Assembly: GCA_964632965.1 (NCBI GenBank)
Contig: CAZWFC010000001.1
Location: 804-64,803 of the forward strand
Direction: 5' to 3'
Length of the DNA: 64,000 nt
DNA from: an uncultured Rhodocyclaceae bacterium
Lineage (GTDB): Bacteria > Pseudomonadota > Gammaproteobacteria > Burkholderiales > Rhodocyclaceae
Positions 1,053 to 22,470 of the stretch are shown here, in pieces. Position numbers and translations under genes: made by a program. The notes beneath the pieces were generated by a model that did no database searches, was not told where the DNA came from, and saw nothing but the letters and a program-made list of their open reading frames with translations. The first letter of the stretch is position 1. Each line of letters opens with the position of its first letter.

Positions 1053-1115
1053 GGCGGTTGCTCCGATGTGGTCGACGCCGCATGCTAGCAAGCGGCCGCC
1101 GCTCAGGGGGCTTCC

Positions 1116-3924: not shown

Positions 3925-3958
3925 TGCGGCATGTCGCCGCATGCGACATCGTGCCGCA
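3925..3958. promoter_or_regulatory. Two abutting candidate RegA-type operators
   Basis: TGCGGCA-TGT-CGCCGCA (3925-3941) is directly followed by TGCGACA-TCG-TGCCGCA (3942-3958). They lie in the 127-nt gap between the TBDR stop (3988) and the small-gene start (3860). Confidence 0.45.
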
Positions 3959-3987: not shown

Positions 3988-6072
3988 TCACCACTTTCCT
4001 TCCAGCGACAGCAGTACGGTGCGCGTTCCCCTGTCGGTGGCGGCGAGCGACCAGGTTGCGCCGGGCGCGGAGGCATCGAGCTGGCGGCGGGTGTCGGCGC
4101 GCAGCAGGTTCTGCAAGGACAGACGCAGGTTCAGGGAGCGGCTCAGCTTCTGCAGCGCGTAGGCATCGAACACGGTGCGGCGCCGGGTTTCATAGGCTTG
4201 TTCGCCCGGCACCTGGGTGAGGACGCGGCCGTTGTGCTGCATCGATACGCCGAAGCTCTTGTCGGCCAGGGTCTGGTCGAAGCCGGCGCTGAGGATGTAG
4301 CGCGATGAATCGCGCGCGGCGCGGCTGATGCCCAAGCGCTGGTCCTCCACCCGGCTGCGCGGCACGGTCAGATGGGCACGGAATGTCGCGCCGCGCCAGC
4401 CGAGGCTGTCGGCGCGCAGCTTGCCGTCGAGTTCCACGCCCCAGTGGCGGGCGGCGCCTTCGTTGTAGGGGCGGTCCACCCAGCGCGCGCCTTCCTGCTG
4501 GACGCGCCTTTCGATGAACTCCTCCGTCTGCCGCAGATAGGCGTTGGCGCCGAAGACGCCGGCTTCGTCCGGCAGGTAGCGTTCGAGCACGGCCTCGAAA
4601 TTCACGCTGCGCTCGGGGCGCAGGTTCGGATTGCCGCGCCGGTCGGGTTCCAGCGGCGTGTTGGCATTGACGCTGAATACCGGCTGGTTGGTGAGTTCGT
4701 CGAGGCGCGGCGGCTTGATGCCGGCGCCGAGGGACGTGCGCAGCACCCAGCGCTGCACCGGTTCCCAGCGCAGGGCCAGCGAGGGCAGCAGGCGCCGGTG
4801 GCTCTGGCCGGCGCCGTCGACGGCATAGCGGAGGACTTCGCCGCGCAGACCCGATGTGACGGTCGTCCCGGCGCCCGGACTCCACTCGTCCTGCACCCAG
4901 GTGCTCCATTGCCTGTCCCAGGCCGAGTGCGTTTCGTCGGCCGTCACGGCGCCGCTGTTGATCTGGCTCTCGTCGCGGCGGTGTCCGTTCTCCTCGACGC
5001 TGGCGGCGAGCACATGCTGCCCCGCGCTCCAGTCGAGACGGACGGCGCCGCCCAGGTCGCGCTCCTTGCGGCGCATCTGTTCGTTCGAGAGCGTGGCCGC
5101 TCCGGCGGCGGTGAGCGCGTTGCGCTGCGTATCGGCGTAGCGTGCGCCATCGGAGAACGCCAGCCGCGCGGAATACTTGCGGCCGTCGCGCAGCATCTCG
5201 GCGTCGGCGCGCAGGCGGTTGAAGGCATTGCGGCTGCGCTCGTTGTCGTTGCGCGTGGTGCTGTTGGCCGGGGTGGCGAGGTCGCTGCGTTCGAAGGCGT
5301 TGTCGCCGCGCCCGAAGGAGCGGAAGATCACCGGGTTGATGGACAGGCTGTCGCTGCCGGATTTCCACGCCAGGCGCGGCGACATCACGAATTCGTTGGT
5401 CTTGCGGTCGCCGTGTTCGTCGTCTTCCTGGCGGATTCCGGTGCTGTCGCTGCGGCTCGCCTGCCGCCCCGACGGCATGTCGTGGTGGTTCAGCGTCACC
5501 GGCAGCAGCCAGGAGAAGGCCTGGTCGCCGCCGCCCTTGGTGTAGGAGGTCTGGACCAGCGGCTTGCCGTTGCGCCAGCCGCCGGCCGCCTTGAAGGCGG
5601 TGGATTCCCGCGACAAGGGCTTGTTGAGCACCAGGTTCACGCTCAGCGGCGCGCTGCCGCCGAATTCCGCCGACGAGCCGCGCACGATTTCGACCCGTTG
5701 CAGTTCCGTGGAAGGCAGGCGGCCGACGATGGCCTGGGCCATGCGCGCATTGCCGGGAACGCGCTCGCCGTCGATGAGGATTTGCACCGAATCACGCACC
5801 ATGCCCCGCGAACGCAGTCCCATGGCGCCGTCGGCGCCCGGCGTGCCGGCATCGACGCCGGGCAGCTTGCCCATCACGTCGCTGATCGTCAGCGCGCCCA
5901 TGGCCTCGATGTCCTGGCGGTTGATGACGACTTTCTGTGTCGCGGCCTGGCGGCGCTCGGCGATGTCGTCCTCGCCGCCGGCGGTGACCGTCATTTCCGG
6001 GAGTGTTTTTTCACCGGCCGCCCAGGCGTTTGCCAGGGTCAGCCACAAGGGCAGCAGAAGGTATCGTTTCAT
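3988..6072 (-). CDS. TonB-dependent outer-membrane receptor
   Basis: Signal peptide MKRYLLLPLWLTLANAWA. Plug motifs are present (EMTVTAG, GLRSRGMVRDSVQILIDGERV, VEIVRGSSAEFG). A 694-aa barrel ends in ...LSLEGKW. Confidence 0.9.
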   Translation of the reverse strand: MKRYLLLPLWLTLANAWAAGEKTLPEMTVTAGGEDDIAERRQAATQKVVINRQDIEAMGALTISDVMGKLPGVDAGTPGADGAMGLRSRGMVRDSVQILIDGERVPGNARMAQAIVGRLPSTELQRVEIVRGSSAEFGGSAPLSVNLVLNKPLSRESTAFKAAGGWRNGKPLVQTSYTKGGGDQAFSWLLPVTLNHHDMPSGRQASRSDSTGIRQEDDEHGDRKTNEFVMSPRLAWKSGSDSLSINPVIFRSFGRGDNAFERSDLATPANSTTRNDNERSRNAFNRLRADAEMLRDGRKYSARLAFSDGARYADTQRNALTAAGAATLSNEQMRRKERDLGGAVRLDWSAGQHVLAASVEENGHRRDESQINSGAVTADETHSAWDRQWSTWVQDEWSPGAGTTVTSGLRGEVLRYAVDGAGQSHRRLLPSLALRWEPVQRWVLRTSLGAGIKPPRLDELTNQPVFSVNANTPLEPDRRGNPNLRPERSVNFEAVLERYLPDEAGVFGANAYLRQTEEFIERRVQQEGARWVDRPYNEGAARHWGVELDGKLRADSLGWRGATFRAHLTVPRSRVEDQRLGISRAARDSSRYILSAGFDQTLADKSFGVSMQHNGRVLTQVPGEQAYETRRRTVFDAYALQKLSRSLNLRLSLQNLLRADTRRQLDASAPGATWSLAATDRGTRTVLLSLEGKW

Positions 6073-6090
6073 GAGTGCGGTCGATGAAAA

Positions 6091-6783
6091 TCAGAAGGTC
6101 CGGAGGATCTGGCTCACGCCGACGAGGATCAGCAGGCCGGCGCTGAGCGCCTCGATGCGCGGGCGCCACGGCCCCAGCTGTTCGCGCAGGCGCGCGCCGA
6201 TGTAAGCGACGCCGAGGCCATACACCAGCGACGGCACGACGATGGCGCCGAGGCCGAAGCTGAGCCCGAGCAGGAAGCCGTCGGCGGCCAAGCCGGACGC
6301 CGCGGCCGAGAACAGCACCACGCCCAGCGGCGCGCAGGGCGTCAGCGCCATGCCGACGCCCATCAGGAACAGGCCGCCCGGCAACAGCGGCCGCGGTGCG
6401 CCGGCGAAGTCGATGCGCCGCACCGGCTGGACGTCGCCGGCGGATGCCGCCGTCGTCGCGCAGGCGGGGCGGCGCTGCCAGAAGAGAGCGAGGCCGACCA
6501 TCAGGGCGGCGGCGCCGACGAGCAGGTGCAGCTGCGGCGCGGCGGCGGTGCCGGCCTTGACGAAATGGCCGGCCCAGCCCGCCGCCAGACCGAACAGCGA
6601 GTAGCCCGTCAGGCGTCCGAGGGACAGCGGCAGCACGACGCGCCAGGAGCGGCGAAGGCTGAAGTCGCGGGCGAGGAACACCGGGCCCAGGTAAGGCAGG
6701 CAGCTGACGAGGCAGGGGCCCAGGCCATAGACCAGCCCGAGGGCCATGGCCATGGGCAGGCCGACGACGGTTTCGACGGGCAT
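6091..6783 (-). CDS. Polytopic membrane protein, DsbD_2/CcdA-like or TauE/SafE-like
   Basis: ORF 6091..7200 trimmed to ATG 6783, which forms an ATGA overlap with the upstream stop. 230 aa, about 6 TM helices. It has GPCLVSC in TM1 and LTPCAP in a later TM. Paralog of 46226..46927. Confidence 0.75.
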   Translation of the reverse strand: MPVETVVGLPMAMALGLVYGLGPCLVSCLPYLGPVFLARDFSLRRSWRVVLPLSLGRLTGYSLFGLAAGWAGHFVKAGTAAAPQLHLLVGAAALMVGLALFWQRRPACATTAASAGDVQPVRRIDFAGAPRPLLPGGLFLMGVGMALTPCAPLGVVLFSAAASGLAADGFLLGLSFGLGAIVVPSLVYGLGVAYIGARLREQLGPWRPRIEALSAGLLILVGVSQILRTF

Positions 6784-7586
6784 CAGGACGCCTCGGCGAG
6801 GAACTCGCTGCGCGCCAGGATGGCGGCGCCCAGGGCGGTGGTCGTCTGCGCGTGCTCCGGCACCACGAGTTCGTGCTGCAACTCGTCCTGGATTGCCGCC
6901 ACCAGGCCCTTGTTCAGGGCCGGACCGCCGTCGAAATAGACCCGGCCCTCGATGCCGACGCGCTTGGCCAGACGCACCGTGCGCTTGGCGATCGAATAGT
7001 GGATGCCGGCGATGATCTCTTCCTTGCCGTGGCCGTTGGCGAGCAGGCCGATGATCTCGGATTCGGCGAACACCGTGCAGGTGGCGTTGATGGTCAGCGG
7101 CGCGCCCTTGCTGTTGAAGTGGTAGTCGCCCAGCTCCTCCAGGTCGACATCGAGATTGCGGGCGGCGACGTCGAGAAAGCGCCCGGTGCCGGCGGCGCAC
7201 TTGTCGTTCATGACGAAGTTGGCGACGTTGCCGCCGGCATCGATCTGTATCGCCTTCGAGTCCTGGCCGCCGATGTTGATGATGGTGCGCACGCCGCCGA
7301 AGGCCTTGCCGACTTCATGCGCGCCGATGGCGTTGGCGGTGATCTCGGATATCGAGTCGTCGGCTTCCTTGAACAGCTTGCGGCCGTAGCCGGTGGCGAT
7401 CAGGTATTTCACCTGCTCGCGCGCGACGCCGTGCTGCTCCAGCAGGACGTGCAGGGTTTCCTTGGCGTTCTTGTGGAACAGGCTGCCGGAGTCCCTGACA
7501 TGGACGCCGACGATTTTCCCCTCGCCATCCACCAGCGCCACCTTGATGGCGGTGGAGCCGATGTCGAGGCCGGCGAAATAGTTCAT
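6783..7586 (-). CDS. BcrAD/BadFG/HgdC-family ATPase (activase of 2-hydroxyacyl-CoA-dehydratase-type Fe-S enzymes)
   Basis: ORF trimmed to ATG 7586 (MNYFAGLDIGSTAIKVALVD). Family motifs are present: GGQDSK, NDKCAAGTGRFLD and CTVFAESE (the Cys pair that bridges the dimer 4Fe-4S cluster). Confidence 0.85.
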   Translation of the reverse strand: MNYFAGLDIGSTAIKVALVDGEGKIVGVHVRDSGSLFHKNAKETLHVLLEQHGVAREQVKYLIATGYGRKLFKEADDSISEITANAIGAHEVGKAFGGVRTIINIGGQDSKAIQIDAGGNVANFVMNDKCAAGTGRFLDVAARNLDVDLEELGDYHFNSKGAPLTINATCTVFAESEIIGLLANGHGKEEIIAGIHYSIAKRTVRLAKRVGIEGRVYFDGGPALNKGLVAAIQDELQHELVVPEHAQTTTALGAAILARSEFLAEAS

Positions 7587-7635
7587 GCTGCCTCCGCCGG
7601 GCCGCCCCAAGAGGGCAGCGAGTCGATGGCCCGGA

Positions 7636-7685
7636 GCGAACACCGTTCGCGAACAAGCGTCACCCCCCTTCCGCGGGAAGGGGGG
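7636..7685 (-). promoter_or_regulatory. Intercistronic stem-loops between the HGD-D-type gene and the activase gene
   Basis: GCGAAC-ACC-GTTCGC at 7636-7650. CCCCCCTTCC-GCG-GGAAGGGGGG at 7663-7685, a perfect 10-bp stem. No T-run follows on the transcribed strand. Confidence 0.4.
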
Positions 7686-7701
7686 CTGGGGGGGATGGTT
7701 C

Positions 7702-8985
7702 TCATGTCATTTTCCTCTTGCGGGTCTTGATCGATTCGAGGAAGGCCTCGATGCGCGTCGACAGCTGGCCCTGGTCGTCGGGGCTGTAGTCGGTTTCGAT
7801 GTAGAGCATGGGAATGCCGGCCGCGTTTAGCGCCGCGGCGACGCTCTTCTGTTCCATTTCGTACACCTGGCAGCCGGCGAAGGCCTGGTACACGACGCCG
7901 TCCACCGCGAAGCTGCGCGCCAGTTCCAGCAGGCGGCGCTTGCGGTCGTCGTTGCGCGTGAAGATGGGGCAGGTGCAGGGCTTCAGGTACCTGTCGGCGA
8001 GACTGTCCACCATGTCGTTGAGCAGCCACTCGTCGACGGCGGTCATGTCGTAGAGCATGCGGTTGGCGGAGCAGGTCTCGTCGGCGACGACGACGCCGCC
8101 CGCTTCCTCGATCAGCAGCGGCAGCTTGAGGTTCGGAAACACCGGCGGCGAGCCCGTGAACAGGATGCGCGGCGCCTTGCGCTGCGCTGCCTGGTAGCCA
8201 TCGGCCTGGCGCTGCGCCAACTCCGTGTTGAGCTTTTCCACGGCATCGGTCCAGCGTTCGATGTCGTCGAAGAAGAAGGCGTTGGTGATGAGGAAGACGT
8301 CCTTGCCGAGCATCAGCGCCGGGCTGGCCTTGCGGAAGTCGTGCAGCCGGCGGAAGGCGGCCTGGGCCTGGCCGGTGCGCGCCATCGCCGCCTTGAGGTT
8401 CTTGCGCGTCAGCTTCCTGCCGGTCACCTCGCGCAGCTTCTGCGCGAACTGGCGCACCGAGCGCTGCCAGTAGAGCCGCGCCTCCTCGCTTTCCTTGACG
8501 CTGGGCAGCTCCAGGTTGTAGACGGCATGGCCCATGTCCTCGATCATCGCCGAGGCCTTCTTCTTCTGGTCGCAGGTGGTGGGATTGACGACCAGGTCGG
8601 GCTTGCCGATCCGGGGAACGGGGGCTTCGGAATGCAGCATGCCGAGCGTGGCCTTGACCAGGGAACACGATTTCGCCGGCATGAAGTCGGCGCCGACCTG
8701 GTCGTAATGGTAGGAGCCGTTGCACAGGCGCACCGGCGTCGCGCCGAGGGCGTAGATGAGTTCGTCCGGCACCTGGATGCAGGTGGTGCCGATCAGCTTG
8801 CCGCTGTGGGGCAGCGGCTCGCCCTGGATATAGACGCGGCGGAACAGGTCGTAGAAATACTGCATCGCTGCGGGGTTGCCGTCGAAATCGTCGGTGATGT
8901 GGTCGAGTGCGACCTCCGCTTCGCGCGCCTGGCGCGACAGGTTGTAGGCCGGCTGGCCGCGTTGCGGCGTGGATGTCGTGGTCAC
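7702..8985 (-). CDS. HGD-D family Fe-S protein (2-hydroxyacyl-CoA dehydratase / benzoyl-CoA reductase B-C / double-cubane-cluster protein family), single subunit
   Basis: ORF 7702..9957 trimmed to GTG 8985, which forms a GTGA overlap with the upstream stop (427 aa). Family-like blocks are present: GTTCIQVPDELIYALGATPVRLCNG, TTCDQKKK, ADETCSANR, KPCTCP and FAGCQVY. The exact start is uncertain. Confidence 0.8.
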   Translation of the reverse strand: MTTTSTPQRGQPAYNLSRQAREAEVALDHITDDFDGNPAAMQYFYDLFRRVYIQGEPLPHSGKLIGTTCIQVPDELIYALGATPVRLCNGSYHYDQVGADFMPAKSCSLVKATLGMLHSEAPVPRIGKPDLVVNPTTCDQKKKASAMIEDMGHAVYNLELPSVKESEEARLYWQRSVRQFAQKLREVTGRKLTRKNLKAAMARTGQAQAAFRRLHDFRKASPALMLGKDVFLITNAFFFDDIERWTDAVEKLNTELAQRQADGYQAAQRKAPRILFTGSPPVFPNLKLPLLIEEAGGVVVADETCSANRMLYDMTAVDEWLLNDMVDSLADRYLKPCTCPIFTRNDDRKRRLLELARSFAVDGVVYQAFAGCQVYEMEQKSVAAALNAAGIPMLYIETDYSPDDQGQLSTRIEAFLESIKTRKRKMT

Positions 8986-9974
8986 GGCGTGTGTCCCTTG
9001 TGCATGCGCTTGATGAATCCGGCTTCGGTGGCTGCGAAGACGGGAATGCCGGCGAAGGTGGCGCTGAGCGCGCCCGGTTCCGGGCAGGCGGCGACGCACT
9101 TGAAGCACAGGGTGCAGTCGTCGCTCATGATGTCGGCCTTGTCGACGTCGTCGGCGATGGCCTTGATCTCCATGTCGCAGACGCGGTAGCAGTCGCCGCA
9201 GCGGGTGCATTTGTCGCCGTCCTTCTTCAGCTTCAGCAAGGCCGGCTTGGACATCAGGTAGTGCAGCGCGCTCATCGGGCAGAAGAAGCAGAAGAAGCGC
9301 TTCTTGACGAAGGAACCGACCAGGAACAGGCCGGTGACCGCCATGCCCAGCGCGGTCATTACCAGCGCCGTCCGGCTCGAGAAGTCGATGGTCAGCTGCG
9401 AGAAATCCCCCGTGAACATCGGCAGGACCATGCGTGCCGGGCAGATCAGACAGAACGGCGTCGCCATGTCGCGCGAGAAGAAGCCGCCGCCGATGCCGAG
9501 CGGGATCAGGATCGTCAGCGCGAGCAGGACATACTTGATCCGGGTCAGCTGCGCGAACTGCCCCCGGCTGTAGCGCGAGTAGCGGATGCCGAGGCGGCGG
9601 CGCAACGCGGTGATCCAGTCCTGGATCGTGCCGAGCGGACAGACGAAGCCGCACCAGCCCTTGTTGAGGACGATGAACCAGAGGCCGAAGACGAGGAAGC
9701 CGGTGAGGATGGCGAGGCTGGCGGCGCTGAACAGCATCGGCCAGGAGCGGCTCAGCTGGTGCTGCAGCGGCAGCAGGTAGCACACGCCGCCCCGCCCGTC
9801 CTGGTTGTAGCCGCAGGAGAAGAAGGGCAGGCGCGAGCCCAGGTCGATGGCGAGGTAGCCGCCATAGACGAAGAGGACGAAGCCGGCGATCTGGAACCAG
9901 AAGCGGAAGCGGTTCCAGTCGACGCGATTGACGGCGTCGCGAACCGCCTGCAGGCACGCGTTATTTGGCGTCAT
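8982..9974 (-). CDS. NapH/NosH/MauN-type polytopic membrane protein with two ferredoxin-type 4Fe-4S motifs
   Basis: ORF trimmed to ATG 9974. It has several TM helices, a CGFVCPLGTIQDW motif and a second membrane CxxCP motif (FFCFFCP). The C-terminus carries CTRCGDCYRVC and CTLCFKCVAACP. Confidence 0.8.
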   Translation of the reverse strand: MTPNNACLQAVRDAVNRVDWNRFRFWFQIAGFVLFVYGGYLAIDLGSRLPFFSCGYNQDGRGGVCYLLPLQHQLSRSWPMLFSAASLAILTGFLVFGLWFIVLNKGWCGFVCPLGTIQDWITALRRRLGIRYSRYSRGQFAQLTRIKYVLLALTILIPLGIGGGFFSRDMATPFCLICPARMVLPMFTGDFSQLTIDFSSRTALVMTALGMAVTGLFLVGSFVKKRFFCFFCPMSALHYLMSKPALLKLKKDGDKCTRCGDCYRVCDMEIKAIADDVDKADIMSDDCTLCFKCVAACPEPGALSATFAGIPVFAATEAGFIKRMHKGHTP

Positions 9975-11361
9975 CGAAGCGCACCTCCGGGAACGGCCTG
10001 ATCCGGCGCCGGCGATAGAGATAGACGGCGGCGCCGCCGAACAGCACGATCGCCAGGCCGACGCCGAGGCCCCAGGCATAGGAGCGGTAGTCCTCGGGCG
10101 ACGGGTAGTAGTTGCCGGCCAGGGTGGCCTGATAGCGCACACCGGTGTAGGGCTGGCCCTTGTAGCTGCCGGCTTCGGCGGCGCTGGCTTCGGCGATGAG
10201 CAGGAAGCTCGCCTTGAAGCGTTTCTGGAACTCGTTCCAGGGCGGGAAGTAGTCGCGGATGATCTGGAAGCTGACGCGGCCCTGCTCGTCGCTGACCGCT
10301 TCCTTGGTCCAGCCCTGGTGGCTGACGAAGCGCACCCGCGCCCCCGCCGCGGGCAGGCCCTTCTGCAGGACGACGAAGACCTGCTCGTCGCCGGAGCGCA
10401 GGCGGAAGAACAGCGGCTTTTCGTTCGGCTGGCGCTCGCGCACGATCTCGATCGGCGCCGAGTCCAGCACCCGGTCGGCGGCGGCGCCCCTGGCGCGTTC
10501 CTCCTCCTCGGCATCGTGGGTGAAGTTGCCGACTTCGGCCTTGGCGACGCTGACGCTCAGGGTTTCCCCCTGCAACTTGCGGGTGGTGGCGTACACGCGG
10601 TAGAAGCCCTGTGCCGGCATTTCGAAGGCCAGATTGCGCTGGCCTGCGGCGGGCGGCGGCAGGGGGTCGCCCTCCGGTTTGCCGAACGGCGCGACGAGGA
10701 CGGTCTCCGGCGCCGCATCGGCCTCCTCGCGGTAGAACGGCGACTTCTGTGGGTCCGTGCCGCTGCGCAGCCACAGGCGCTTGACGCGCGGCCCGCCGCC
10801 CATGTCCATTCCCCCCATATCCATGCCGCCCATGCCGCCGCGGCGGCTGCCTTCCGGGCGCACGGCGTCGCCGCGCATCGGCGGCATGTCCGAGATCCAG
10901 ATCGTGCCGCCGCCGCGCATGCCCATGCCGCCGGGCCGGCCGCCGCTGCGGGAACTGTCCTCGGGCTTGCCGGCGACAGTCGGTGGCGCGCCCGCGGCGA
11001 CTTTTTCCGTTGCCGTGCCGTGCCGATGGCCGGCGTCCGCAGCCGGTGGGGCGGGTGGCACGGCCTTGTCTTCCTGCGCGGCGCGTTTGGCGCGCCACTC
11101 GGCTATCTGTGCTGCGCTGGGGCGTCCGCTGCCCGGCTGGGCAGCGTCCGGTTTGCCGCCGGGCTGCGCCGATGCCGCCGGTGCGCCGTCACCTTCCGCC
11201 TTGGCGCGCTCCGCCGCCCGTTTCTGGTAGAACGCCCGCCGTTCCTCCGGGCTGGCGCCCTCGGGCGGACGCGAACCGCTGCTCCCGTCCTGCGCCAGGA
11301 CGAGGCCGCTCGCCAGCAGCGTCAGCAATGCCGGCACGATGCGATGTGTCAGGTGGCTCAT
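9961..11361 (-). CDS. Exported Met/Gly-rich protein with a DUF4198-like (CbiK/NikM-periplasmic-like) C-terminal domain and a C-terminal TM anchor
   Basis: ORF trimmed to ATG 11361 (signal peptide MSHLTHRIVPALLTLLASGLVLA). It has a low-complexity Ala/Pro/Gly region and a Met-rich tract, GGMGMRGGG...MPPMRG...GGMGGMDMGGMDMGGG. An Ig-like block (VFVVLQKGLPAAGARVRFVSHQGWTKEAVSDEQGRVSF) is followed by a terminal TM helix plus RRRR. The DUF4198 assignment is from memory of that family's pattern. Confidence 0.7.
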   Translation of the reverse strand: MSHLTHRIVPALLTLLASGLVLAQDGSSGSRPPEGASPEERRAFYQKRAAERAKAEGDGAPAASAQPGGKPDAAQPGSGRPSAAQIAEWRAKRAAQEDKAVPPAPPAADAGHRHGTATEKVAAGAPPTVAGKPEDSSRSGGRPGGMGMRGGGTIWISDMPPMRGDAVRPEGSRRGGMGGMDMGGMDMGGGPRVKRLWLRSGTDPQKSPFYREEADAAPETVLVAPFGKPEGDPLPPPAAGQRNLAFEMPAQGFYRVYATTRKLQGETLSVSVAKAEVGNFTHDAEEEERARGAAADRVLDSAPIEIVRERQPNEKPLFFRLRSGDEQVFVVLQKGLPAAGARVRFVSHQGWTKEAVSDEQGRVSFQIIRDYFPPWNEFQKRFKASFLLIAEASAAEAGSYKGQPYTGVRYQATLAGNYYPSPEDYRSYAWGLGVGLAIVLFGGAAVYLYRRRRIRPFPEVRFDDAK

Positions 11362-11368
11362 GATCGGG

Positions 11369-13669
11369 TCAGAAGCTGTAGGAGACGCCGGCACGCAGGG
11401 TCAGCGGCGTGTAGGAGCCGCTGTTGCCCTGGCTGCCTATGGCGCCGACCACGTTTGAGACTCCGCCGATCGAGAACAGCGCGGCGCGGGCGGCGTATTT
11501 CTGGTCGGTGAGGTTGAGCGCATGCAGCCAGAACGACCAGTCCTTGCCCCGATAGCTGGCGCGCAGGCTGTAGAGATCCGGACGGGAGTAGGAACCGAGG
11601 CTGTTCGTGGTTTCGAGGTAATAGCTGGCCGTGTAATCGCCCTCCAGTTCCACCAGCCAGCCGGGCGCCGGCTTCACCCCGATCCGCAGGTTGACCTTCT
11701 GGCGCGGCAGGGCCTGGTAGGACTTGCCCGCATAGTCGTAAGTGGTGGTCTTGTAGTCGGTGAAGTAGGCGCGGGCGTTGGTGTAGGTGGCGCCGAGATC
11801 GAGCCAGGAAGCGGCCGCCCAGGTGAACATCGATTCCAGCCCCCGGGTGGCGAGTTGTCCGGCGGCTTCGTTGAGGGTGCAGGTCGCCCCTGCGTTCAAG
11901 GCCGCCTGTTCCGCCGCGGTACAGGTCCGCGTCGTATTGAAGCCGTTGGCTTTTGCGTGGTAGAGGGTCACGTCGTAGTGCAGGCCGAGTTCCCGGAAAC
12001 GTCCGCGGAAGCCGATTTCCCTGGTCAGCCCCCTCTCGGGCGCCAGCACCGCGCCGATCACGTTGGCGGCCTGCCCGACGGTCTTCGTATTCACCAGGCT
12101 GGAGGTGGATTGCGGGTTGAAGGTTTCGCCCCAGTTGGCCCAGACGAGATGGCTCTTGTCGAGTTCGTAGGTCGCGCCCAGGCGCCGCACATCGCCCTTG
12201 CGCGTCATCGTCACGTCCTTGTTCGTGGCGGTCCGGTCGTCGACGTTGTAGTCGATCTTGCCGAAGCGCTCGCCGATGTGAAGCCGCAGTCTTTCGAGGG
12301 GCGAGAACTCGACATGGACGAAGGGCGTGGTCTCCCGGGTTTCGGTCAACGATCCCGACGACGACAGGCTGCCCTGCGCCCACATGCCGGCCTGGGCCTG
12401 AAGCGCGTTGAAGCTGTTGTTGTAGGTGGTCGAGTCGGTCGCGACGTCGATGACCTCGGCGCCGACATAGGCAGTGGTCTTGGCCAGGTCGAATTCCTGC
12501 CGGTACATCGCCAGGGTCGTCTTCGTGGTCGCCGCCGACTTCTTGACGGTGTTCGTGACGGTTGCGCTGCCGTTGACGGCCGCACAGCCGACGGCCACGT
12601 TGTCGCAGATCACGCTGTTGGCGCCGCCGGAACCGCCGCTGCCGTTGTTGATGCCGTCGTCGGTGATCCTGCTGTGCGCGATGGAGAACTCCCCGCGCTC
12701 GCCGATCAGTTGCTGGAGCCGCAACGACGTGGTCTTGTAGGTGTCGATGTACTGGCCGAAGGTGCCGGGTACGACCTGCCGCCAGTCCTTGTCGAAATAG
12801 GTTTCGCGCAGGTTCGCGCCGTTGAGGCTCACGTTCTTCAGTTTGGCCGCCTCGTTCGCATTCAGCGGCAGCGAACCGGCCCAGCGATAGTCGTAGCGCA
12901 GCTGGCTCTGGCCGAGGGTGATCCGGGTCGAGTCGGTCGGCCGGAACTGCGCCCGTACATTGAGGCCGTCCTTGTGCTCGGCTGCGGCATCCTGGGCCGA
13001 CGGGGCGCTGCTCTTGCGCCAGCCGCCGTTGTCCATGCTGCTGCCGGTGACGATGAAACTGAAGCGGCCATCGGCGAAGCCGGTGCCGGCGCTGCCTTGC
13101 GTGCGCAGGAAGCCCCAGCTGCCGGCCTCCTGCGACAGCCTGGCCTGAAAGCGCTCCGGCGGCTGGCGGGTGAACACGCTGATCGTGCCGCCCAGTGCGC
13201 CGCTGCCATAGAGTGCGGAAGCCGGACCGGTGATGACTTCGATGCGTTCGATATCCGCACCATCGACTTCGTCGAATACCGATGTGTTGGTCGCCGTTGC
13301 GCGCATGCCGTCGATGCGGTTCTCGGTGTACAACTTGCCGCCGTCCGGAATGCGCATGTTGCGGACCATGCTGATGCCGGGCACCCGCTTGCCGAGTTCC
13401 AGCAGGTTGTTGACCAGTTGCAGGTGCTCGATTTCCTCCTTGCCCACGACGGCGCCGGAGATCGGCGTGTACTCGGTCAGCTTGCCCAGTTCGGTACGCA
13501 GTTGTATCGGTTTGTCGGTGTCCGAGGAAACGCTCACTTCCTTGAGCCGGGTTTCGTTGTCTTCGGCAACGGCGCTGCCGGCGCAGAGCAGGCCGATGGC
13601 CGCCGCGACGGCGACGGGCAGCGGACGGCGGGCGGCGATGGCGGCTGCCGCATTGGGTTTGCGGATCAT
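11369..13669 (-). CDS. TonB-dependent outer-membrane receptor
   Basis: Signal peptide ...AIGLLCAGSAVA. Plug motifs are present (VSVSSD, ELGKRVPGISM, NRIDGMR, IEVITGPASALYGSGALGGTI). The C-terminus is ...AGVSYSF. Confidence 0.9.
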   Translation of the reverse strand: MIRKPNAAAAIAARRPLPVAVAAAIGLLCAGSAVAEDNETRLKEVSVSSDTDKPIQLRTELGKLTEYTPISGAVVGKEEIEHLQLVNNLLELGKRVPGISMVRNMRIPDGGKLYTENRIDGMRATATNTSVFDEVDGADIERIEVITGPASALYGSGALGGTISVFTRQPPERFQARLSQEAGSWGFLRTQGSAGTGFADGRFSFIVTGSSMDNGGWRKSSAPSAQDAAAEHKDGLNVRAQFRPTDSTRITLGQSQLRYDYRWAGSLPLNANEAAKLKNVSLNGANLRETYFDKDWRQVVPGTFGQYIDTYKTTSLRLQQLIGERGEFSIAHSRITDDGINNGSGGSGGANSVICDNVAVGCAAVNGSATVTNTVKKSAATTKTTLAMYRQEFDLAKTTAYVGAEVIDVATDSTTYNNSFNALQAQAGMWAQGSLSSSGSLTETRETTPFVHVEFSPLERLRLHIGERFGKIDYNVDDRTATNKDVTMTRKGDVRRLGATYELDKSHLVWANWGETFNPQSTSSLVNTKTVGQAANVIGAVLAPERGLTREIGFRGRFRELGLHYDVTLYHAKANGFNTTRTCTAAEQAALNAGATCTLNEAAGQLATRGLESMFTWAAASWLDLGATYTNARAYFTDYKTTTYDYAGKSYQALPRQKVNLRIGVKPAPGWLVELEGDYTASYYLETTNSLGSYSRPDLYSLRASYRGKDWSFWLHALNLTDQKYAARAALFSIGGVSNVVGAIGSQGNSGSYTPLTLRAGVSYSF

Positions 13670-13725: not shown

Positions 13726-14136
13726 CTAGCGCGGCGATTCGGTGACGAAGGCGATCTTCGTCACCCCCGCGTTCTGCGCCACGGCCAGGATGTCGGCCAC
13801 TTTTTCGTAGGGCGTGCCGCGGTCGGCACGCAGGTGGAGTTCCGGTTGCGACGATGCGAGTTCGTTGAGGCGGGCATGGATATCGGCGCGGGTCGTCGGG
13901 ATGCCGTCGAGGTACAGGTTGCCCGGGCCGTCCAGGGCCAGCTTCACCACCACGGGCTTGTCGTCGAGCCGGGTCGAATCGACGCGCGGCAGGTCGATGG
14001 GCACGGCCTGATGGAAGAGCGGCGCGGTGATGATGAAAATGACCAGCAGCACCAGCATCACGTCGACCAGGGGCGTGGTGTTGATCTCGGCCATCGGCGC
14101 CTGGTTTGCGCCTTCGTTGAAGGAACCGAAGGCCAT
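13726..14136 (-). CDS. exbD: Biopolymer transport protein ExbD/TolR
   Basis: ORF trimmed to ATG 14136, which forms an ATGA overlap with the exbB stop. It has MAEINTTPLVDVMLVLLVIFIITAP, typical of ExbD. 136 aa. Confidence 0.9.
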   Translation of the reverse strand: MAFGSFNEGANQAPMAEINTTPLVDVMLVLLVIFIITAPLFHQAVPIDLPRVDSTRLDDKPVVVKLALDGPGNLYLDGIPTTRADIHARLNELASSQPELHLRADRGTPYEKVADILAVAQNAGVTKIAFVTESPR

Positions 14137-14957
14137 CACGCGGCCCTCGCCGTTGCCACCGCGGCGACGGCCGGGCGCGTTGCCGCGCTGGACGGGAAGC
14201 TCTCCGCCGGGCGGCGTGCGCCGGTGGTCAGGAAGGCATGCAGGTCGTGCGCGAAGCCGTCGAGCTGCGCCAGCACCAGCCGATTGCCGCGCGTCAGCGC
14301 GTTGTAGGCCAGCACGGCGGGAATGGCGACGAAAAGGCCGGCAGCGGTCATGATCAGCGCCTCGCCGACCGGGCCGGCGACCTTGTCCAGCACCACCTGA
14401 GTCGAGCCGGACAACGCGACCAGCGCATGGTAGATGCCCCATACCGTGCCGAACAGACCGATGAACGGCGCCGTCGATCCCACCGACGCCAGGAAGGTCA
14501 GGCCGCTTTCCATCCCGGCCTGGGCGTGAAGCATGTGGTTGCGCAGCGCACGGGTCACGCATTCGTTGAGGCTGACGCCGGCACCGAGGCCGCGCGCGGC
14601 ATGGCATTCCGCCGCCGCCTGGGCGCAGCTGCCGCAGTCGGCGTTTCCCGCACCCAGGTTGCGTCCCGCCGGGCAGCCGTGGATTTGCGCGGCCTGAGTG
14701 CCGGCGCGGGCCAATCCGGCGAACGCCCCGGTGCGGTCCGCGCCTTCGATGGCCGCGAGCGCTTCGGGCAAGGTGCGCGCCTGCCAGAACGTCTGCGGCG
14801 CCTGCTCCATGGCGCGGTTGAAGCGGAGCTGGAGAACGAAGCGCGTGATGGTCAGCGACCAGCCGGCGATCGACAGCAGCAGCAGCAGGACTGCCACGGA
14901 ATGGGTGACCAGATCGCCCTGTTGCCAGAAATGAGCCAAGCCGAGATCGGAGTGCAT
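14136..14957 (-). CDS. exbB: MotA/TolQ/ExbB proton-channel protein with a Cys-rich cytoplasmic-loop insertion
   Basis: Conserved ExbB blocks are present (APFIGLFGTVWGIYHAL, VAGPVGEALIMTAAGLFVAIPAVLAYN). It is 273 aa versus 236 aa for the paralog at 18904. The extra segment carries C95, C108, C111, C118 and C133. Confidence 0.9.
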   Translation of the reverse strand: MHSDLGLAHFWQQGDLVTHSVAVLLLLLSIAGWSLTITRFVLQLRFNRAMEQAPQTFWQARTLPEALAAIEGADRTGAFAGLARAGTQAAQIHGCPAGRNLGAGNADCGSCAQAAAECHAARGLGAGVSLNECVTRALRNHMLHAQAGMESGLTFLASVGSTAPFIGLFGTVWGIYHALVALSGSTQVVLDKVAGPVGEALIMTAAGLFVAIPAVLAYNALTRGNRLVLAQLDGFAHDLHAFLTTGARRPAESFPSSAATRPAVAAVATARAA

Positions 14958-14962
14958 GGAAG

Positions 14963-15634
14963 CTACCCTTGAAGGTTGAAGGTGATGGGGACCTGGACCC
15001 AGGCCGCGACCGTCTCGTCGCCGCGCCGCGCGGGAACGAAGCGCCAGCGGCTGACGGCCTCTTCGGCGGCCTGGTCGAGGCGGGCGAAGCCGCTGCTGAG
15101 CTTGATTTCGACCTTCTCGGCCAGGCCGGCGGCACTGACGCGAACCCGCAGCAGCACGCGGCCCTCTTCGCGCAGGCGGCGCGAGGCGTGCGGATAGACA
15201 GGCTTGGGGTTGTCGAGGTAATCGGCGTCGAAGCGGGCGGCTGTCACCGGCACCGCTTCGGGTGCGGCGATCGGCGCCGGGGCCGGCGCGGCCTGCGGTG
15301 CCGGCGGCTGGGGCGGTACGGCGAATGCCGCGGCCTGCGGTGCCGGTGTGTCGGCGGCGAGGACCGGCTGCGGGGCGGGTCTGGCTTTTCGCGGTGTCTG
15401 CCTGGGCGGAGGCGGCGGCGGAACTTCCGGCGCCGATTCGATCAGGCGCGCGGTGAAGGGGCGCGCCAGATCGGCGAACCGCTCGGCCGGAACGGCGAGC
15501 GCGACGAGGACGAGCAGCGCCGCATGCCCTGCGGCCACGCCGGCGAAGGAGAGCGTCTGGCCGCGCGGCTTGCCGAGCGGTGTTCCGTAATCAGGAAAAA
15601 AAAGTCCCATTGCGCCTGTCGAAGAATTTTCCAT
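14963..15634 (-). CDS. tonB: Energy transducer TonB
   Basis: N-terminal TM helix, a Pro-rich spacer (PPPPPPRQTPRKARPAPQP...) and a C-terminal TonB domain (YPHASRRLREEGRVLLRVRV...RWRFVPARRGD). The start could instead be the ATG at 15610. Confidence 0.85.
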   Translation of the reverse strand: MENSSTGAMGLFFPDYGTPLGKPRGQTLSFAGVAAGHAALLVLVALAVPAERFADLARPFTARLIESAPEVPPPPPPRQTPRKARPAPQPVLAADTPAPQAAAFAVPPQPPAPQAAPAPAPIAAPEAVPVTAARFDADYLDNPKPVYPHASRRLREEGRVLLRVRVSAAGLAEKVEIKLSSGFARLDQAAEEAVSRWRFVPARRGDETVAAWVQVPITFNLQG

Positions 15635-15730: not shown

Positions 15731-15832
15731 GCGGCACGTTGTCGCGCGGCGGATTGCCGCGCGGCATCTTGCCGCACCATCGATTCGTCATGATTGCCGT
15801 GCGGCATAACGCCGCATGCGACGCTGTGTCGC
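15731..15832. promoter_or_regulatory. Array of five GCGNC-N5-GNCGC units in the divergent tonB / TBDR control region
   Basis: Three units abut exactly: GCGGC-ACGTT-GTCGC | GCGGC-GGATT-GCCGC | GCGGC-ATCTT-GCCGC (15731-15775). They are followed by GCGGC-ATAAC-GCCGC (15801-15815) and GCGAC-GCTGT-GTCGC (15818-15832). Confidence 0.5.
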
Positions 15833-18102: not shown

Positions 18103-18162
18103 GCCGGATTGTCGACCGTCCGCCGCGGCAGCCGCCTGCGGCGGACGATGCCGCCACCCGGC

Positions 18163-18179
18163 TGCGGCAATTTGTCGCA
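18163..18179. promoter_or_regulatory. Candidate RegA-type operator (TGCGGCA-ATT-TGTCGCA)
   Basis: Near-perfect 17-bp palindrome between the TBDR stop (18102) and the second tonB start (18265). Confidence 0.5.
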
Positions 18180-18264
18180 GCGCTGCCGCGGGTGAAGGGA
18201 TTACCCTGTCGCCCTTTCGCACAGGCGGGCGGCGGCATGGCCGGCCGCCTGTAAAATCTGGACC

Positions 18265-18900: not shown

Positions 18901-18903
18901 TTC

Positions 18904-19614: not shown

Positions 19615-19625
19615 GGAACGGCGAT

Positions 19626-20382: not shown

Positions 20383-20973
20383 ATGAGAATGTTGCCGCGA
20401 ATTGTTCTGGGAGCATGCCTCGCTCCCCTGTTGATCTGGTCGAGCCTGGCATGCGGCAGCGACGCCGACGGTGATCTGCGGCACGCGGCGAAGTTGCAGA
20501 AGAACGGCGAAACCGCGACGGCTCTGGCGATCTGGAAACGCTGGGCGGAGAAAGGCAATGCCGACGCCGCCTACAACCTGGCGGTGATTCATCAGCACGG
20601 CGACGGTGTGGCGGTTGACTACGCGCAGGCCCTGCACTGGTATCGCCATGCCGCTGCACTCGGCGACCGCATCTCGGAATACCAGATCGGACTGATGTAC
20701 CAGATCGGTCAGGGCGTGGCGGCCGATGCCGCAGAGGCACACCGCTGGTTTACCGCACACCGTTCCCATCATGCGCATCACGAGCGAAGCGAACAGATGC
20801 AGACATGGCGGAAGCAGGCGGCCCGACTGATCGAGGAGAGCGACCGGCGCGAGGCACTGGTCAAGTCGCGTGCCGATAGCGCACGCGTGCTCGCCGAATT
20901 GCGGCGGCGAGCCGGCGCATCCGCAGCGCCTACCGATGTCGCTGCTGCGGCGACGGACCGGCCCATCAATTGA
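20383..20973 (+). CDS. Sel1-repeat (SLR/TPR-like) lipoprotein with a His-rich segment
   Basis: ORF 20095..20973 trimmed to ATG 20383 (MRMLPRIVLGACLAPLLIWSSLAC, a lipobox). Sel1 repeats are present (GNADAAYNLAVIHQHGDGVAVDYAQALHWYRHAA..., YQIGLMYQIGQGVAADAAEAHRWF). A His run follows: HRSHHAHHE. Confidence 0.75.
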   Translation: MRMLPRIVLGACLAPLLIWSSLACGSDADGDLRHAAKLQKNGETATALAIWKRWAEKGNADAAYNLAVIHQHGDGVAVDYAQALHWYRHAAALGDRISEYQIGLMYQIGQGVAADAAEAHRWFTAHRSHHAHHERSEQMQTWRKQAARLIEESDRREALVKSRADSARVLAELRRRAGASAAPTDVAAAATDRPIN

Positions 20974-20989
20974 CCAGCGGGAGGTCGCC

Positions 20990-21523
20990 TTGAAGCTCCT
21001 GTTCATCGACGATGACCGCCGTTTTTCAAGCGTGGCTGCCCGCGCGCTCGGGCGGCGCGGTTTCAAAGTCAGGATCGCCCCGGATGCGGCCTCGGCTCTG
21101 CGCCTGGTCGACAGTGAAACCGGATTCGCAGTGGTCGATCTGCAACTCGGCGCGGTTTCCGGCCTGACCCTGCTGCCCCGGTTGAAGGCGACGAACCCCG
21201 CGATGCGCATCCTCATGCTGACCGGCTACGCCAGCATCGAAACGGCGGTGGAAGCCATCAAGCTCGGGGCGGACGACTATTTGCTCAAGCCGGTCGATAT
21301 CGACACCCTCGTCGCGGCCTTGCGCAACGACACCGCCGGACAGCATGAACGGGCCGACGCCAAGCCGCTGCCGCTCAAACGGCTGGAGTCCGCCCACATT
21401 CGGCAGGTGCTGTCCGATTGCCGCGGCAACATTTCCGCCGCCGCGCGCGCCCTGCAGATGCATCGGCGCACCTTGCAAAGGAAGCTGGCAAAAAGCGAGG
21501 CCGGGCGAAACGTTGCGATATGA
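20990..21523 (+). CDS. RegA/PrrA/ActR-family response regulator (receiver + Fis-type HTH); no partner kinase adjacent
   Basis: TTG start at 20990, 7 nt after GGGAGG. Receiver blocks are present: LLFIDDD, VVDLQLG..SGL, MLTGYASIETAVEAIKLGADDYLLKP. The C-terminal HTH GNISAAARALQMHRRTLQRKLAK is the near-invariant RegA-family signature. Confidence 0.8.
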   Translation: MKLLFIDDDRRFSSVAARALGRRGFKVRIAPDAASALRLVDSETGFAVVDLQLGAVSGLTLLPRLKATNPAMRILMLTGYASIETAVEAIKLGADDYLLKPVDIDTLVAALRNDTAGQHERADAKPLPLKRLESAHIRQVLSDCRGNISAAARALQMHRRTLQRKLAKSEAGRNVAI

Positions 21524-22290: not shown

Positions 22291-22470
22291 ATGAACCAGC
22301 AACCCGCCCGCCGGGAAAACGACATCGAGATGTCTTCGCTGCTGCTCGGCGCAGGCTTCGCGCTCGCTTCGCTGATCCTGCTGCCGGCCGTGGCGCAGCG
22401 CATCGGCATGGGCTCCAGCCTCACCATCGCCCTGCGCGGCGCCTTGATGCGCGCAGCCAACCGTCTCTAG
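22291..22470 (+). CDS. Possible 59-aa small membrane protein
   Basis: Below the ORF-track size cut-off. GGAGACGGAC precedes the ATG. Translation: MNQQPARRENDIEMSSLLLGAGFALASLILLPAVAQRIGMGSSLTIALRGALMRAANRL, with one clear TM helix. Confidence 0.35.
   Translation: MNQQPARRENDIEMSSLLLGAGFALASLILLPAVAQRIGMGSSLTIALRGALMRAANRL

Follow-up and report, generated by a model that had tools for sequence, protein, structure and literature searches.

A conserved gene cassette linking a double-cubane cluster protein and its activase to a membrane polyferredoxin, a DsbD_2 permease and TonB-dependent receptors: a candidate module for reductive release of imported metals

Why should an ATP-dependent reductase be encoded between two outer-membrane receptors? 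The question is raised by a stretch of 64,000 nucleotides (G+C content ~67%) from an uncultured Rhodocyclaceae bacterium (GenBank assembly GCA_964632965.1, contig CAZWFC010000001.1, positions 804 to 64,803 of the forward strand), hereafter called the window, in which ten minus-strand genes stand head to tail: tonB, exbB, exbD, the gene of a TonB-dependent receptor (TBDR-A), and the genes of a secreted periplasmic protein, a NapH-like polyferredoxin, a double-cubane cluster protein (DCCP), an archerase-type activase, a DsbD_2-family permease and a second receptor (TBDR-B) (Table 1). Double-cubane proteins were structurally defined in 2018, and their biological function was stated to be unknown in papers of 2020 and 2025 (PMC7317905; PMC11971306). 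The DCCP of Carboxydothermus reduces acetylene, hydrazine and azide at its cluster in vitro (PMC7317905); the double-cubane cluster of BzdN is an electron transfer and storage cofactor that takes electrons below -600 mV (PMC11971306); and archerases are extremely oxygen-sensitive (PMC7317905; Haft, bioRxiv 10.1101/2022.07.06.499078). An earlier reading of the region made from its letters (the sequence-only reading) knew of no characterised system with this architecture, and full-text literature searches agree, having returned no paper on the gene string and no known pathway that uses it.

Here, we put forward the tentative reading, held at somewhat less than even confidence, that the five genes from the periplasmic protein to the permease (the cassette) may form an oxygen-independent, uptake-coupled reductive release module. 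Its more specific form, which we regard as possible and rather on the unlikely side, is that ATP-driven electrons, far below the physiological range, would pass via the DCCP and the NapH-like protein into the envelope and strip the metal from inert complexes imported by TonB (a corrinoid or metallotetrapyrrole in a sister clade; copper, cobalt/nickel or iron species in the clade of the window). The argument draws on the identity of the parts, their conserved order, the ways in which sub-modules combine, the riboswitch control of the sister clade and a set of operator repeats. One genome per species was scanned; 191 genomes encode a close relative of the DCCP, and 79 loci at 72-89% identity (designated by L numbers) were examined, with neighbour counts restricted to loci with enough flank.

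The assignment of the HGD-D gene to a single-subunit double-cubane-type protein with its own activase, proposed in the sequence-only reading, is supported by several comparisons. The protein passes the equivalog cutoff of NF040772 (Table 1), and tblastn finds one copy each of the HGD-D and activase genes in the window. An NCBI protein from a metagenome-assembled genome of Rhodocyclaceae matches it at 100% identity. Its best PDB matches are 7YYL and 6ENO, the DCCP of Carboxydothermus (E 1.5e-74, residues 58-420), and it has class-I length with an N-terminal extension. The DCCP motif, CX19CX18-19CX29CX166-170CX32-34CX32C, comprises six cluster ligands and one further cysteine near the opening (PMC7317905). 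All seven are present in the product of 7702-8985, at residues 69, 88, 107, 138, 305, 339 and 372 (spacings 18, 18, 30, 166, 33 and 32), and align column for column with the Carboxydothermus protein; the cluster ligands on which the sequence-only reading made its proposal depend are thus present. The best PDB match of the activase is 4EHT (HadI; 212.6 bits), the DCCP-R chain 7YYL_E scoring 154 bits, and its cluster-cysteine motifs, NDKCAAGTGRF and TCTVFAESE, are aligned and conserved. By sequence, the DCCP and the activase are thus members of their families, and a homodimer with an [8Fe-9S] cluster and ATP-dependent reduction are predicted from membership in the DCCP family. Haft's correlation of DCCPs with SelD suggested selenium as a candidate link, for which no support was found: the window has no sel genes and no tRNA-Sec, and the cassette bears no hint of selenium binding.

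These comparisons leave next to no credence for an ordinary 2-hydroxyacyl-CoA dehydratase or a fragment of a benzoyl-CoA reductase of class I serving fermentation or aromatic degradation, which the sequence-only reading had likewise set aside. JGI labels the orthologues 'benzoyl-CoA reductase/2-hydroxyglutaryl-CoA dehydratase subunit', and the HGD-D and BcrAD_BadFG domains are indeed there; however, the window has a single gene of each kind, the seven-cysteine double-cubane motif is present, and the models of the specific enzymes score far below their cutoffs (HadC 71.9 against 700 bits, HadB 19.6 against 750, BzdN 87.2 against 453.8, BcrC 60.1 against 421). No CoA-transferase, CoA-ligase or acyl-CoA dehydrogenase was found among the ~60 window proteins scanned, nor are such genes conserved across the 79 loci.

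The neighbourhood, whose conservation outside this genome was one of the points that the sequence-only reading had set for checking, recurs across wide phylogenetic distances. The periplasmic protein and the NapH-like protein are encoded upstream of the DCCP in 71 of 71 loci, the activase and DsbD_2 downstream in 63 of 66, and all five core genes occur in the same order in 59 of the 62 testable species-level genomes, an arrangement far beyond chance. Start/stop overlaps link the genes of the cassette. The carriers span Beta-, Gamma- and Alphaproteobacteria, Desulfobacterota and Bacteroidota, and include Rhodocyclaceae, Gallionellaceae, Sulfuricellaceae, Thiobacillus, Sedimenticolaceae, Candidatus Thiodiazotropha, Thiohalomonadaceae, Methylocystaceae, Desulfuromonadaceae, Desulfobacteraceae and Desulfurivibrio. 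When all open reading frames of the 79 loci were clustered de novo, no gene other than the core, the receptors and TonB-ExbBD appeared in more than 11 loci. One sedimenticolaceal locus (L015, 2220-5164) has a partial second cassette directly upstream of the full one, its periplasmic protein, NapH-like protein and DCCP being 27%, 54% and 75% identical, respectively. As for the count of genes, the sequence-only reading placed six between the two receptors; the non-receptor genes number five, the sixth being TBDR-A itself.

A sister clade of DCCPs, 29-33% identical to the window protein, provides a second view of the same association. Its members keep cysteines at window positions 69, 107, 138, 305, 337, 339 and 372, while position 88 varies, and in seven of seven loci their genes stand within the order TBDR / X / NapH-like / HGD-D / activase, DsbD_2 being absent; X denotes a secreted protein, 284-322 aa long, that has a transmembrane helix at its C-terminus. 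The seven loci belong to Desulfobacteraceae, Desulfospira, Desulfobacter, Sporomusa ovata, Phascolarctobacterium and two large genomes (coordinates: L077 12162-18221, L083 2398-10024, L086 4655-11077, L087 6842-11980; also L082/L088). A cobalamin riboswitch lies directly upstream of the operon in each of the four loci whose 5' end is covered, at 83-120 bits against a gathering score of 31.5. The neighbours include a CobN/HmuS-like chelatase with DUF2162/ExbB/DUF2149 (the hmuSTUV pattern), CbiK, CbiZ, CobA/BtuR, BtuCDF-like and NifH/NifDK-like genes. Riboswitch and neighbours connect the sister clade with a metal cofactor, and its operons are candidates for a corrinoid or cobalt salvage reductase system, for which no description was found in the literature. 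In the clade of the window, no cobalamin riboswitch was detected in the window itself, in 14 orthologous loci searched with Rfam or in all 79 searched with nhmmer, and neither the CobN/HmuS-type chelatase nor DUF2162/DUF2149 is found in the window or among the gene clusters that recur in the 79 loci. An anaerobic heme de-chelatase, HmuS needs reduction of the heme iron by an electron route described as unknown, and the Fe2+ that it releases is imported as an ion (PMC12583661).

Across both clades, the NapH-like protein is the constant partner and the hub of the system, not an accessory: it is combined with DsbD_2 where DCCP is lacking, and with DCCP where DsbD_2 is lacking. The former combination is seen in mini-modules of the form TBDR / DUF4198-like / NapH-like / DsbD_2 that have no DCCP or activase (L046 16065-20910, L052 2682-7511, L041 10948-15848 and L012 696-5580, the last in tandem with a full cassette); their DUF4198-like proteins have 273-307 aa, a PREH motif, a C-terminal transmembrane helix and an RRRR motif. 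In L039, only the NapH-like/DsbD_2 pair was seen. Conserved in 77 orthologues are the cysteine pairs C54/C65, WCGxxCP, PFCxICP and FFCFxCPM and, in the C-terminal domain, two CxxCxxCxxxC motifs, and the same cysteine motifs occur in the NapH-like proteins of the cassette, the mini-modules and the sister clade. Topology was read from hydrophobic stretches and the positive-inside rule; by this reading, the N-terminus would be cytoplasmic, the loops with C54/C65 and C175/C178 periplasmic, and the other two pairs and the Fe-S domain cytoplasmic. NapH is the best named relative of the protein, at 84 bits against a cutoff of 234 (83 against 213 for a second NapH model), and NapH identity of the product of 8982-9974 was rejected, the common ground being Fer4_5 and the two-cluster architecture. 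No napG, napA or napC turned up among the window proteins scanned, and a sequence search of the PDB returned matches to the ferredoxin domain only.

The DsbD_2 protein, named 'sulfite exporter TauE/SafE family protein' by PGAP, has conserved cysteines in 65 orthologues: C24xxxC28-x-P in transmembrane helix 1 (TM1), P-C150-x-P-L in TM4 and C108 in a predicted cytoplasmic loop. Its motifs are shared by the paralogues of the mini-modules, and a PDB sequence search with it returned nothing. These cysteines also bear on the alternative that the cassette exports reductant, DsbD_2 acting in the manner of CcdA or DsbD and the Fe-S proteins recharging its cysteines, so that periplasmic proteins or cargo thiols are kept reduced. 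The protein does have a DsbD-superfamily membrane domain with conserved TM1/TM4 cysteines, at positions typical of CcdA, and thioredoxin-like genes lie nearby in five loci. Nevertheless, we consider this alternative very improbable: the cassette encodes no thioredoxin-fold protein that could be the periplasmic partner, the periplasmic protein of the window has zero cysteines, disulfide reduction requires only about -250 mV and no ATP-driven archerase, and the sister operons do without DsbD_2. A second DsbD_2 gene of the window (region 46226-48096, plus strand; 27% identical to that of the cassette) encodes the motifs MDHSHHH, GHCLGMCGG and MPCSMTMAM and is directly followed by two NosL genes, resembling an operon of a Cu(I) permease and chaperone; its His/Met/Cys motifs and its NosL neighbours point to metal transport for the DsbD_2 family, which also speaks against reductant export.

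The periplasmic protein consists, from N- to C-terminus, of a signal peptide, a low-complexity region, the motif W-L/I-S-D-x-P-P, a variable loop, the motif K-R-L-W, a beta-rich DUF4198-like domain, a transmembrane helix and a conserved cytoplasmic tail (Y-RRRR-x2-P-x2-E). The sequence-only reading called it Met-rich, which describes the Met/Gly-rich loop of the window lineage well; in other lineages the same loop is His-rich. Among 72 orthologues, the loop contains at least three Met in 29, at least three His in 37 and at least three His plus Met in 66. DUF4198 proteins are periplasmic, bind Zn or Ni and are often encoded beside TBDRs (PMC12663993, PMC12537917). The match to DUF4198 (PF10670) lies below the gathering score and covers model positions 130-195 only, the paralogues being equally weak. 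Foldseek at E<0.001 retrieved only two hits, both of them chains of Zcp (PDB 9MHL, E 6e-5, TM-score 0.35-0.40), which with a poor query model (AlphaFold2 with 30 homologues of ~70% identity; mean pLDDT 55) amounts to no more than a hint; sequence and profile searches of the PDB gave nothing relevant and did not retrieve Zcp. Neither the three-His metal site of Zcp nor the N-terminal-His site of IsDUF4198 was recognised in the 72 orthologues, the fold having no invariant His. By sequence, the periplasmic and NapH-like proteins are related to DUF4198 and NapH by architecture only.

The coupling to TonB-dependent import, as assumed in the sequence-only reading, is frequent and not universal. In tblastn searches, 42 of 66 loci show a TBDR directly upstream of the cassette, and 28 of 56 testable loci a TBDR-B orthologue directly downstream; these counts are underestimates, because the receptors of L013 and L026 were missed. 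All seven sister-clade loci have a receptor as well, and TonB-ExbB-ExbD precede the cassette in many betaproteobacterial loci. TBDR-A scores far below the cutoff of every specific NCBIfam receptor model; its nearest solved structures are FpvA, PhuR and CirA, and that of TBDR-B is BtuB (E 1.6e-11), the match being confined to the plug region in both cases. The window receptors show no special similarity to the riboswitch-controlled receptors of the sister clade. A third receptor, TBDR-C (region 15895-20042, plus strand), is OprC-like (best PDB match 6FOK), with C107xxxM111 and H308xM310, and is followed by its own TonB-ExbB-ExbD; its orthologues adjoin the cassette in about six other genomes.

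An adjacent TBDR is truly missing in the gammaproteobacterial loci L005, L028, L049, L050, L058 and L078, which counts against a release module coupled to uptake and in favour of a module whose substrate is a small molecule, either endogenous or diffusible, and which serves detoxification or acts as a specialised electron sink, the receptors being neighbours by virtue of receptor-rich islands. The window is such a receptor-dense island, with seven TBDRs, one of them the OprC-like receptor with its own TonB-ExbBD, and the in vitro reduction of acetylene, hydrazine and azide by a DCCP (PMC7317905) would suit this explanation. We judge it improbable, however: a TBDR stands beside the module in two clades that are ~30% identical (seven of seven sister loci and at least 42 of 66 here), a secreted, membrane-anchored protein with a His/Met-rich loop is encoded in 71 of 71 loci, and operator repeats are common to the tonB/TBDR promoters and the cassette (see below).

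In the proposed release module, a TonB-dependent receptor would import a redox-inert metal complex (a chelate, a metal-sulfur species or a metallotetrapyrrole) into the periplasm, where the membrane-anchored, divergent DUF4198-like protein may hold it by means of a loop rich in His or Met. The activase, in the cytoplasm, would hydrolyse ATP to inject very-low-potential electrons into the [8Fe-9S] cluster of the DCCP; from there, the NapH-like protein would receive them at its two-cluster [4Fe-4S] domain and could carry them, through its cysteine pairs on both membrane faces, to the cargo, and the reduced, labile metal ion might enter through the Cys-lined DsbD_2 permease. The direction of electron flow, the site of the chemistry and the role of DsbD_2 in this scheme are those suggested by the genomic evidence. 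NapH-like proteins have been described as modular trans-membrane electron conduits, and PepSY/DUF4198/TBDR clusters have been linked to periplasmic metal reduction (bioRxiv 10.1101/2021.01.07.425746). The combination of NapH-like protein and DsbD_2 even where DCCP is lacking supports the release module, as do the electron-storing cluster of BzdN and the placing of the sister clade in Hmu-like operons. So does the transporter content of the cassette, which is limited to the small six-TM DsbD_2 and includes nothing of the ABC, MFS or other types that would take a large chelate. With no inner-membrane chelate transporter in the cassette, purely cytoplasmic processing of an intact chelate is not the most economical explanation; of the sequence-only proposal that a cytoplasmic reductase acts on a TonB-imported cargo, the link to import is retained and the purely cytoplasmic processing is not.

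A cytoplasmic site of chemistry, the main rival, is nonetheless possible, if rather unlikely, in a form reminiscent of Mer systems: the cargo, or a thiophilic metal or metalloid derived from it, would cross the membrane through DsbD_2 and be reduced by the DCCP, with the NapH-like protein as a tether or a supplier of electrons. C108 of DsbD_2, in its predicted cytoplasmic loop, could hand over a thiophilic cargo. In L087, the gene of a cob(I)alamin adenosyltransferase (CobA/BtuR) stands right after the activase, which fits a cytoplasmic Co(II)-to-Co(I) step, a reduction that takes place at about -610 mV. The DCCP has the complete class-I catalytic motif and length, its Carboxydothermus counterpart reduces small molecules at the cluster (PMC7317905), and Haft independently tied DCCPs to an import system with Cys/Sec metal ligands and proposed reduction after import (bioRxiv 10.1101/2022.07.06.499078). 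On the other hand, the existence of mini-modules without DCCP implies that action on the cargo or on DsbD_2 has to come from the NapH-like protein itself, the sister operons have no DsbD_2, and the cytoplasmic site leaves unexplained why a polyferredoxin with predicted periplasmic cysteine pairs is the most constant partner. Supply of electrons to the activase through the NapH-like protein is a further difficulty. The sequence-only reading suggested that the quinol pool may feed the reductase by this route, for which nothing in the data speaks, and electron flow from quinol to the activase is thermodynamically uphill by several hundred millivolts.

Several observations, in addition to the loci without a receptor, weigh against the release module. 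Ordinary Cu(II) and Fe(III) complexes do not need potentials below -500 mV, which leaves the requirement for ATP unexplained. The full class-I catalytic signature of the DCCP (an N-terminal extension and all seven cysteines, of which one is a non-ligand close to the cluster opening) would suit a terminal reductase of small molecules better than a relay, and the contact between the DCCP and the NapH-like protein is suggested by gene order only. The topology of the latter is a prediction by eye, and the CX3CP motifs of genuine NapH are reported to be cytoplasmic. Among the 72 orthologues, no His, Cys or Met is invariant in the folded domain of the periplasmic protein, so that a classical metal-ion site is not evident, its many conserved residues being Tyr, Arg, Trp, Asp and Glu. 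As to the sister clade, protein X and the periplasmic protein of the window align with an hhalign probability of 17%, too low to establish homology; the CobA/BtuR gene of L087 and the ABC importers near the operons of L082 and L086 fit a cytoplasmic cob(II)-to-cob(I) reductase equally well; and, the window clade having no riboswitch, a function can be transferred to it from the sister clade by analogy only.

Which cargo the module of the window would serve is suggested by its surroundings. The window also contains SCO1 (22448-23107), four NosL genes, a P1B-type ATPase (38164-40590), PepSY_TM (30985-32277), an FGE-like gene and the second DsbD_2, and its sequence reads as a copper or metal homeostasis island. 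PCuAC adjoins the cassette in five other loci and PepSY_TM in eight. The window context, the PCuAC neighbours and the loop rich in Met or His (66 of 72 orthologues) favour copper for this clade, by association only; cobalt/nickel and heme iron are the alternatives. Pairs of a receptor and NosL lie at 27939-30917 and 40598-43877, one of them with FecR and an FGE-sulfatase-like gene nearby. A block of SCO1, an FtsX-like permease, an ABC ATPase and a 332-aa protein (22448-26186, plus strand) is also found beside the cassette of a second member of the Rhodocyclaceae (L002, 9517-13269); it recalls the accessory genes that accompany P19/Ftr1 in iron uptake. A protein with BNR/Asp-box repeats is encoded at the border of the receptor cluster both in the window (3-1115, minus strand) and in Sulfuricella (L010, 1225-2448).

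The genes of the string are closely packed. NCBI gene calls on the identical contig match ours in length for the genes from the NapH-like protein to the permease (330, 427, 267 and 230 aa), and TonB-ExbB-ExbD (13726-15634), noted together with the outer-membrane importers in the sequence-only reading and identified as such by Pfam, are part of the same co-directional string. Four of the junctions described in that reading were found again on the sequence: a 7-nt gap between TBDR-A and the periplasmic protein (11362-11368), a 14-nt overlap of the periplasmic and NapH-like genes (9961-9974), GTGA at 8985-8982, where the GTG start of the DCCP overlaps the stop of the NapH-like gene, and an 18-nt gap before TBDR-B (6073-6090). 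The ATGA reported for the activase/DsbD_2 junction has to be corrected: 6785-6781 reads TGATG, a 1-nt stop/start overlap. That reading also passed over a loose junction, the 115-nt gap between DCCP and activase; of 76 orthologous loci, 48 have a 4-nt overlap of these two genes instead. The hairpin in this spacer folds ordinarily for its composition (z = -0.41). In a minority of loci, the DCCP/activase junction is a hot spot for insertions of GC-rich palindromes like repetitive extragenic palindromes (REP), of 58-405 nt (the window, L005, L010, L015, L020, L027, L034, L044, L048, L053 and L062).

Table 1. Position of the gene string and of its candidate regulatory elements in the window
Feature	Position	Strand	Description
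tonB	14963..15634	-	first gene of the string; Pfam TonB_C 74.1 bits; 5-nt gap to exbB
exbB	14136..14957	-	Pfam MotA_ExbB 105.3 bits
exbD	13726..14139	-	Pfam ExbD 99.3 bits; 4-nt overlap with exbB
TBDR-A	11369..13669	-	outer-membrane TonB-dependent receptor; Plug and beta-barrel (Pfam)
Periplasmic protein, secreted, Met/Gly-rich	9961..11361	-	DUF4198 20.9 bits (cutoff 34)
NapH-like four-TM polyferredoxin	8982..9974	-	Fer4_5 43.1 bits and Fer4_10; two-cluster [4Fe-4S] domain
DCCP, single HGD-D subunit	7702..8985	-	HGD-D 338.7 bits; NF040772 370.2 bits (cutoff 350)
DCCP/activase spacer, 115 nt	7587..7701	-	GC-rich hairpin CCCCCCTTCC...GGAAGGGGGG; REP-like insertion
Archerase-type activase (HgdC/HadI/DCCP-R family)	6783..7586	-	BcrAD_BadFG 180.5 bits; TIGR00241 231.6 bits (cutoff 125.4)
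DsbD_2-family six-TM permease	6091..6783	-	DsbD_2 69.3 bits (cutoff 24.9)
TBDR-B	3988..6072	-	second receptor; Plug and barrel (Pfam); 18-nt gap after DsbD_2
Five inverted repeats GCG(A/G)CA-N3-TG(T/C)CGC	15731..15832		divergent promoter region of tonB and TBDR-C
RegA/ActR/PrrA-like response regulator (REC and Fis-type HTH)	20870..21523	+	Pfam Response_reg and HTH_8; candidate regulator

How might the system be controlled? Across the loci, the inverted repeat of the divergent tonB/TBDR-C promoter region has 269 matches, against 81-122 in shuffled sequences, which concentrate upstream of tonB (28), TBDR_A (20), TBDR_C (7) and the gene of the periplasmic protein (6). In betaproteobacterial loci, as in the window, two to five copies precede tonB, TBDR-A, TBDR-C or the periplasmic-protein gene. 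The repeat fits the RegA/PrrA consensus, and the cluster is a probable operator of a RegA/ActR-like regulator. Such a response regulator is encoded in the window (Table 1), matching NCBIfam ActR_PrrA_rreg over its full length at 147.4 bits, below the cutoff of 250, and the recurring repeats probably mark its regulon. Further copies of the repeat (e.g. GCGGCAAATTGTCGC) stand before receptor and metal genes elsewhere in the window, at 18164, 3457, 3926-3957, 22212, 27743-27806, 36380 and 46930. Two loci of Sulfuricella (L010, L033) have the genes of a RegA/ActR-like regulator and of a histidine kinase with six TM helices directly upstream of the cassette. Gammaproteobacterial loci have a palindrome, GTGCGGCATATGCCGCAC, followed by a sigma-54-type -24/-12 element, TGGC(A/C)C-N5-TTGC, ~170-320 nt upstream of the first tblastn match of the cassette (L005, L029, L030, L035, L036, L038, L049-L052, L058, L060, L078 and L079); no enhancer-binding protein is systematically encoded near these loci, and no sigma-54 promoter was found upstream of the cassette in the window. 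Boxes of Fur, Zur, NikR, CsoR, CueR, ModE and IscR show no positional enrichment upstream of the cassette, and FNR-like boxes occur in two loci only. Expression would be tied to low oxygen or the redox state through the RegA-like regulator or, in gammaproteobacteria, through sigma-54 promoters. The operator repeats, the FNR-like boxes of two loci and the oxygen sensitivity of archerases agree with a release module that operates at low oxygen.

Individual features of the cassette have parallels in known systems. The NapH-like protein has two domains in common with NapH/NapGH and CcoG, the two-cluster [4Fe-4S] domain and the Fer4_5 membrane domain, the latter bearing motifs of the CxxxCP type, and CcoG, a cupric reductase, illustrates that such a fold is able to reduce a metal ion; in contrast, no CcoG model matches the NapH-like protein at E<=0.001, and it has no FixG_C domain. 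In FtrABCD/P19 systems, the NapH-like polyferredoxin FtrD is encoded together with a periplasmic metal-binding protein and a permease, serving metal import coupled to redox chemistry, the electron flow is thought to run oxidatively from Fe2+ to FtrD, and there is no ATP-driven component. P19, the cupredoxin and the FTR1 permease are not present in the cassette. The DCCP/DCCP-R pair of Carboxydothermus hydrogenoformans (6ENO, 7YYL; Jeoung & Dobbek) belongs to the same family as the pair described here and has the same seven cysteines, a similar length and N-terminal extension and an archerase neighbour, but forms a soluble two-gene system, whereas here the pair lies between a polyferredoxin and a permease, behind TBDRs, in facultatively anaerobic proteobacteria. 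In BzdNOPQ (PDB 8S02; PMC11971306), an archerase module loads a double-cubane [8Fe-9S] cluster that is not itself the active site, a precedent for the DCCP as a relay; benzoyl-CoA reductases differ in having two HGD-D and two activase-like subunits and a CoA-ester substrate, against one of each and no CoA metabolism here. The SAO locus of Clostridia and other anaerobes (Haft, bioRxiv 10.1101/2022.07.06.499078) is a second, independent genomic link of NF040772-type DCCPs with an import system, one whose components carry soft (Cys/Sec) metal ligands, with an ABC importer, a MerB-like lyase and selenoproteins and without TBDR, NapH-like protein or DsbD_2, and is likewise a genomic inference only.

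Two further systems come close in logic. In the PepSY-TM (FoxB/VciB-type)/DUF4198/TBDR clusters (Meheust et al. 2021), as in the cassette, a receptor and a secreted protein of DUF4198 type go with a protein that transfers electrons across the membrane, for metal reduction outside the cytoplasm; here, a NapH-like polyferredoxin replaces PepSY-TM, and an ATP-driven reductase is added. The Hmu system of Bacteroidota (HmuY/R/S/T/U/V; PMC12583661) likewise joins TonB-dependent import of a metallotetrapyrrole to anaerobic reductive release and a separate ion permease, and the sister clade is embedded in hmuR/STUV-like operons. It differs in that the published Hmu system includes neither DCCP nor activase nor NapH-like protein, while the window cassette has no CobN/HmuS, DUF2162 or DUF2149. 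The cassette resembles the PepSY/DUF4198/TBDR, Hmu and FtrABCD systems in logic; none of them has an ATP-driven reductase.

The cassette, together with its riboswitch-controlled sister clade, gives DCCPs a concrete setting, the TonB-dependent acquisition of metal cofactors under anoxia, and cultured carriers are at hand in Azovibrio restrictus, Azonexus caeni, Sulfurimicrobium lacus, Sporomusa ovata and Desulfospira joergensenii. Should the proposed reading be true, double-cubane proteins would gain their first physiological role and anaerobic metal acquisition a new principle, and the reading would suggest the missing electron route for reductive de-chelation of the Hmu type. It would also account for the way in which scarce chalcophile metals or corrinoids reach the sulfur- and iron-oxidising denitrifiers, symbionts and sulfate reducers of sulfidic, anoxic habitats, and ATP-driven electron injection would join the known ways of energising nutrient uptake.

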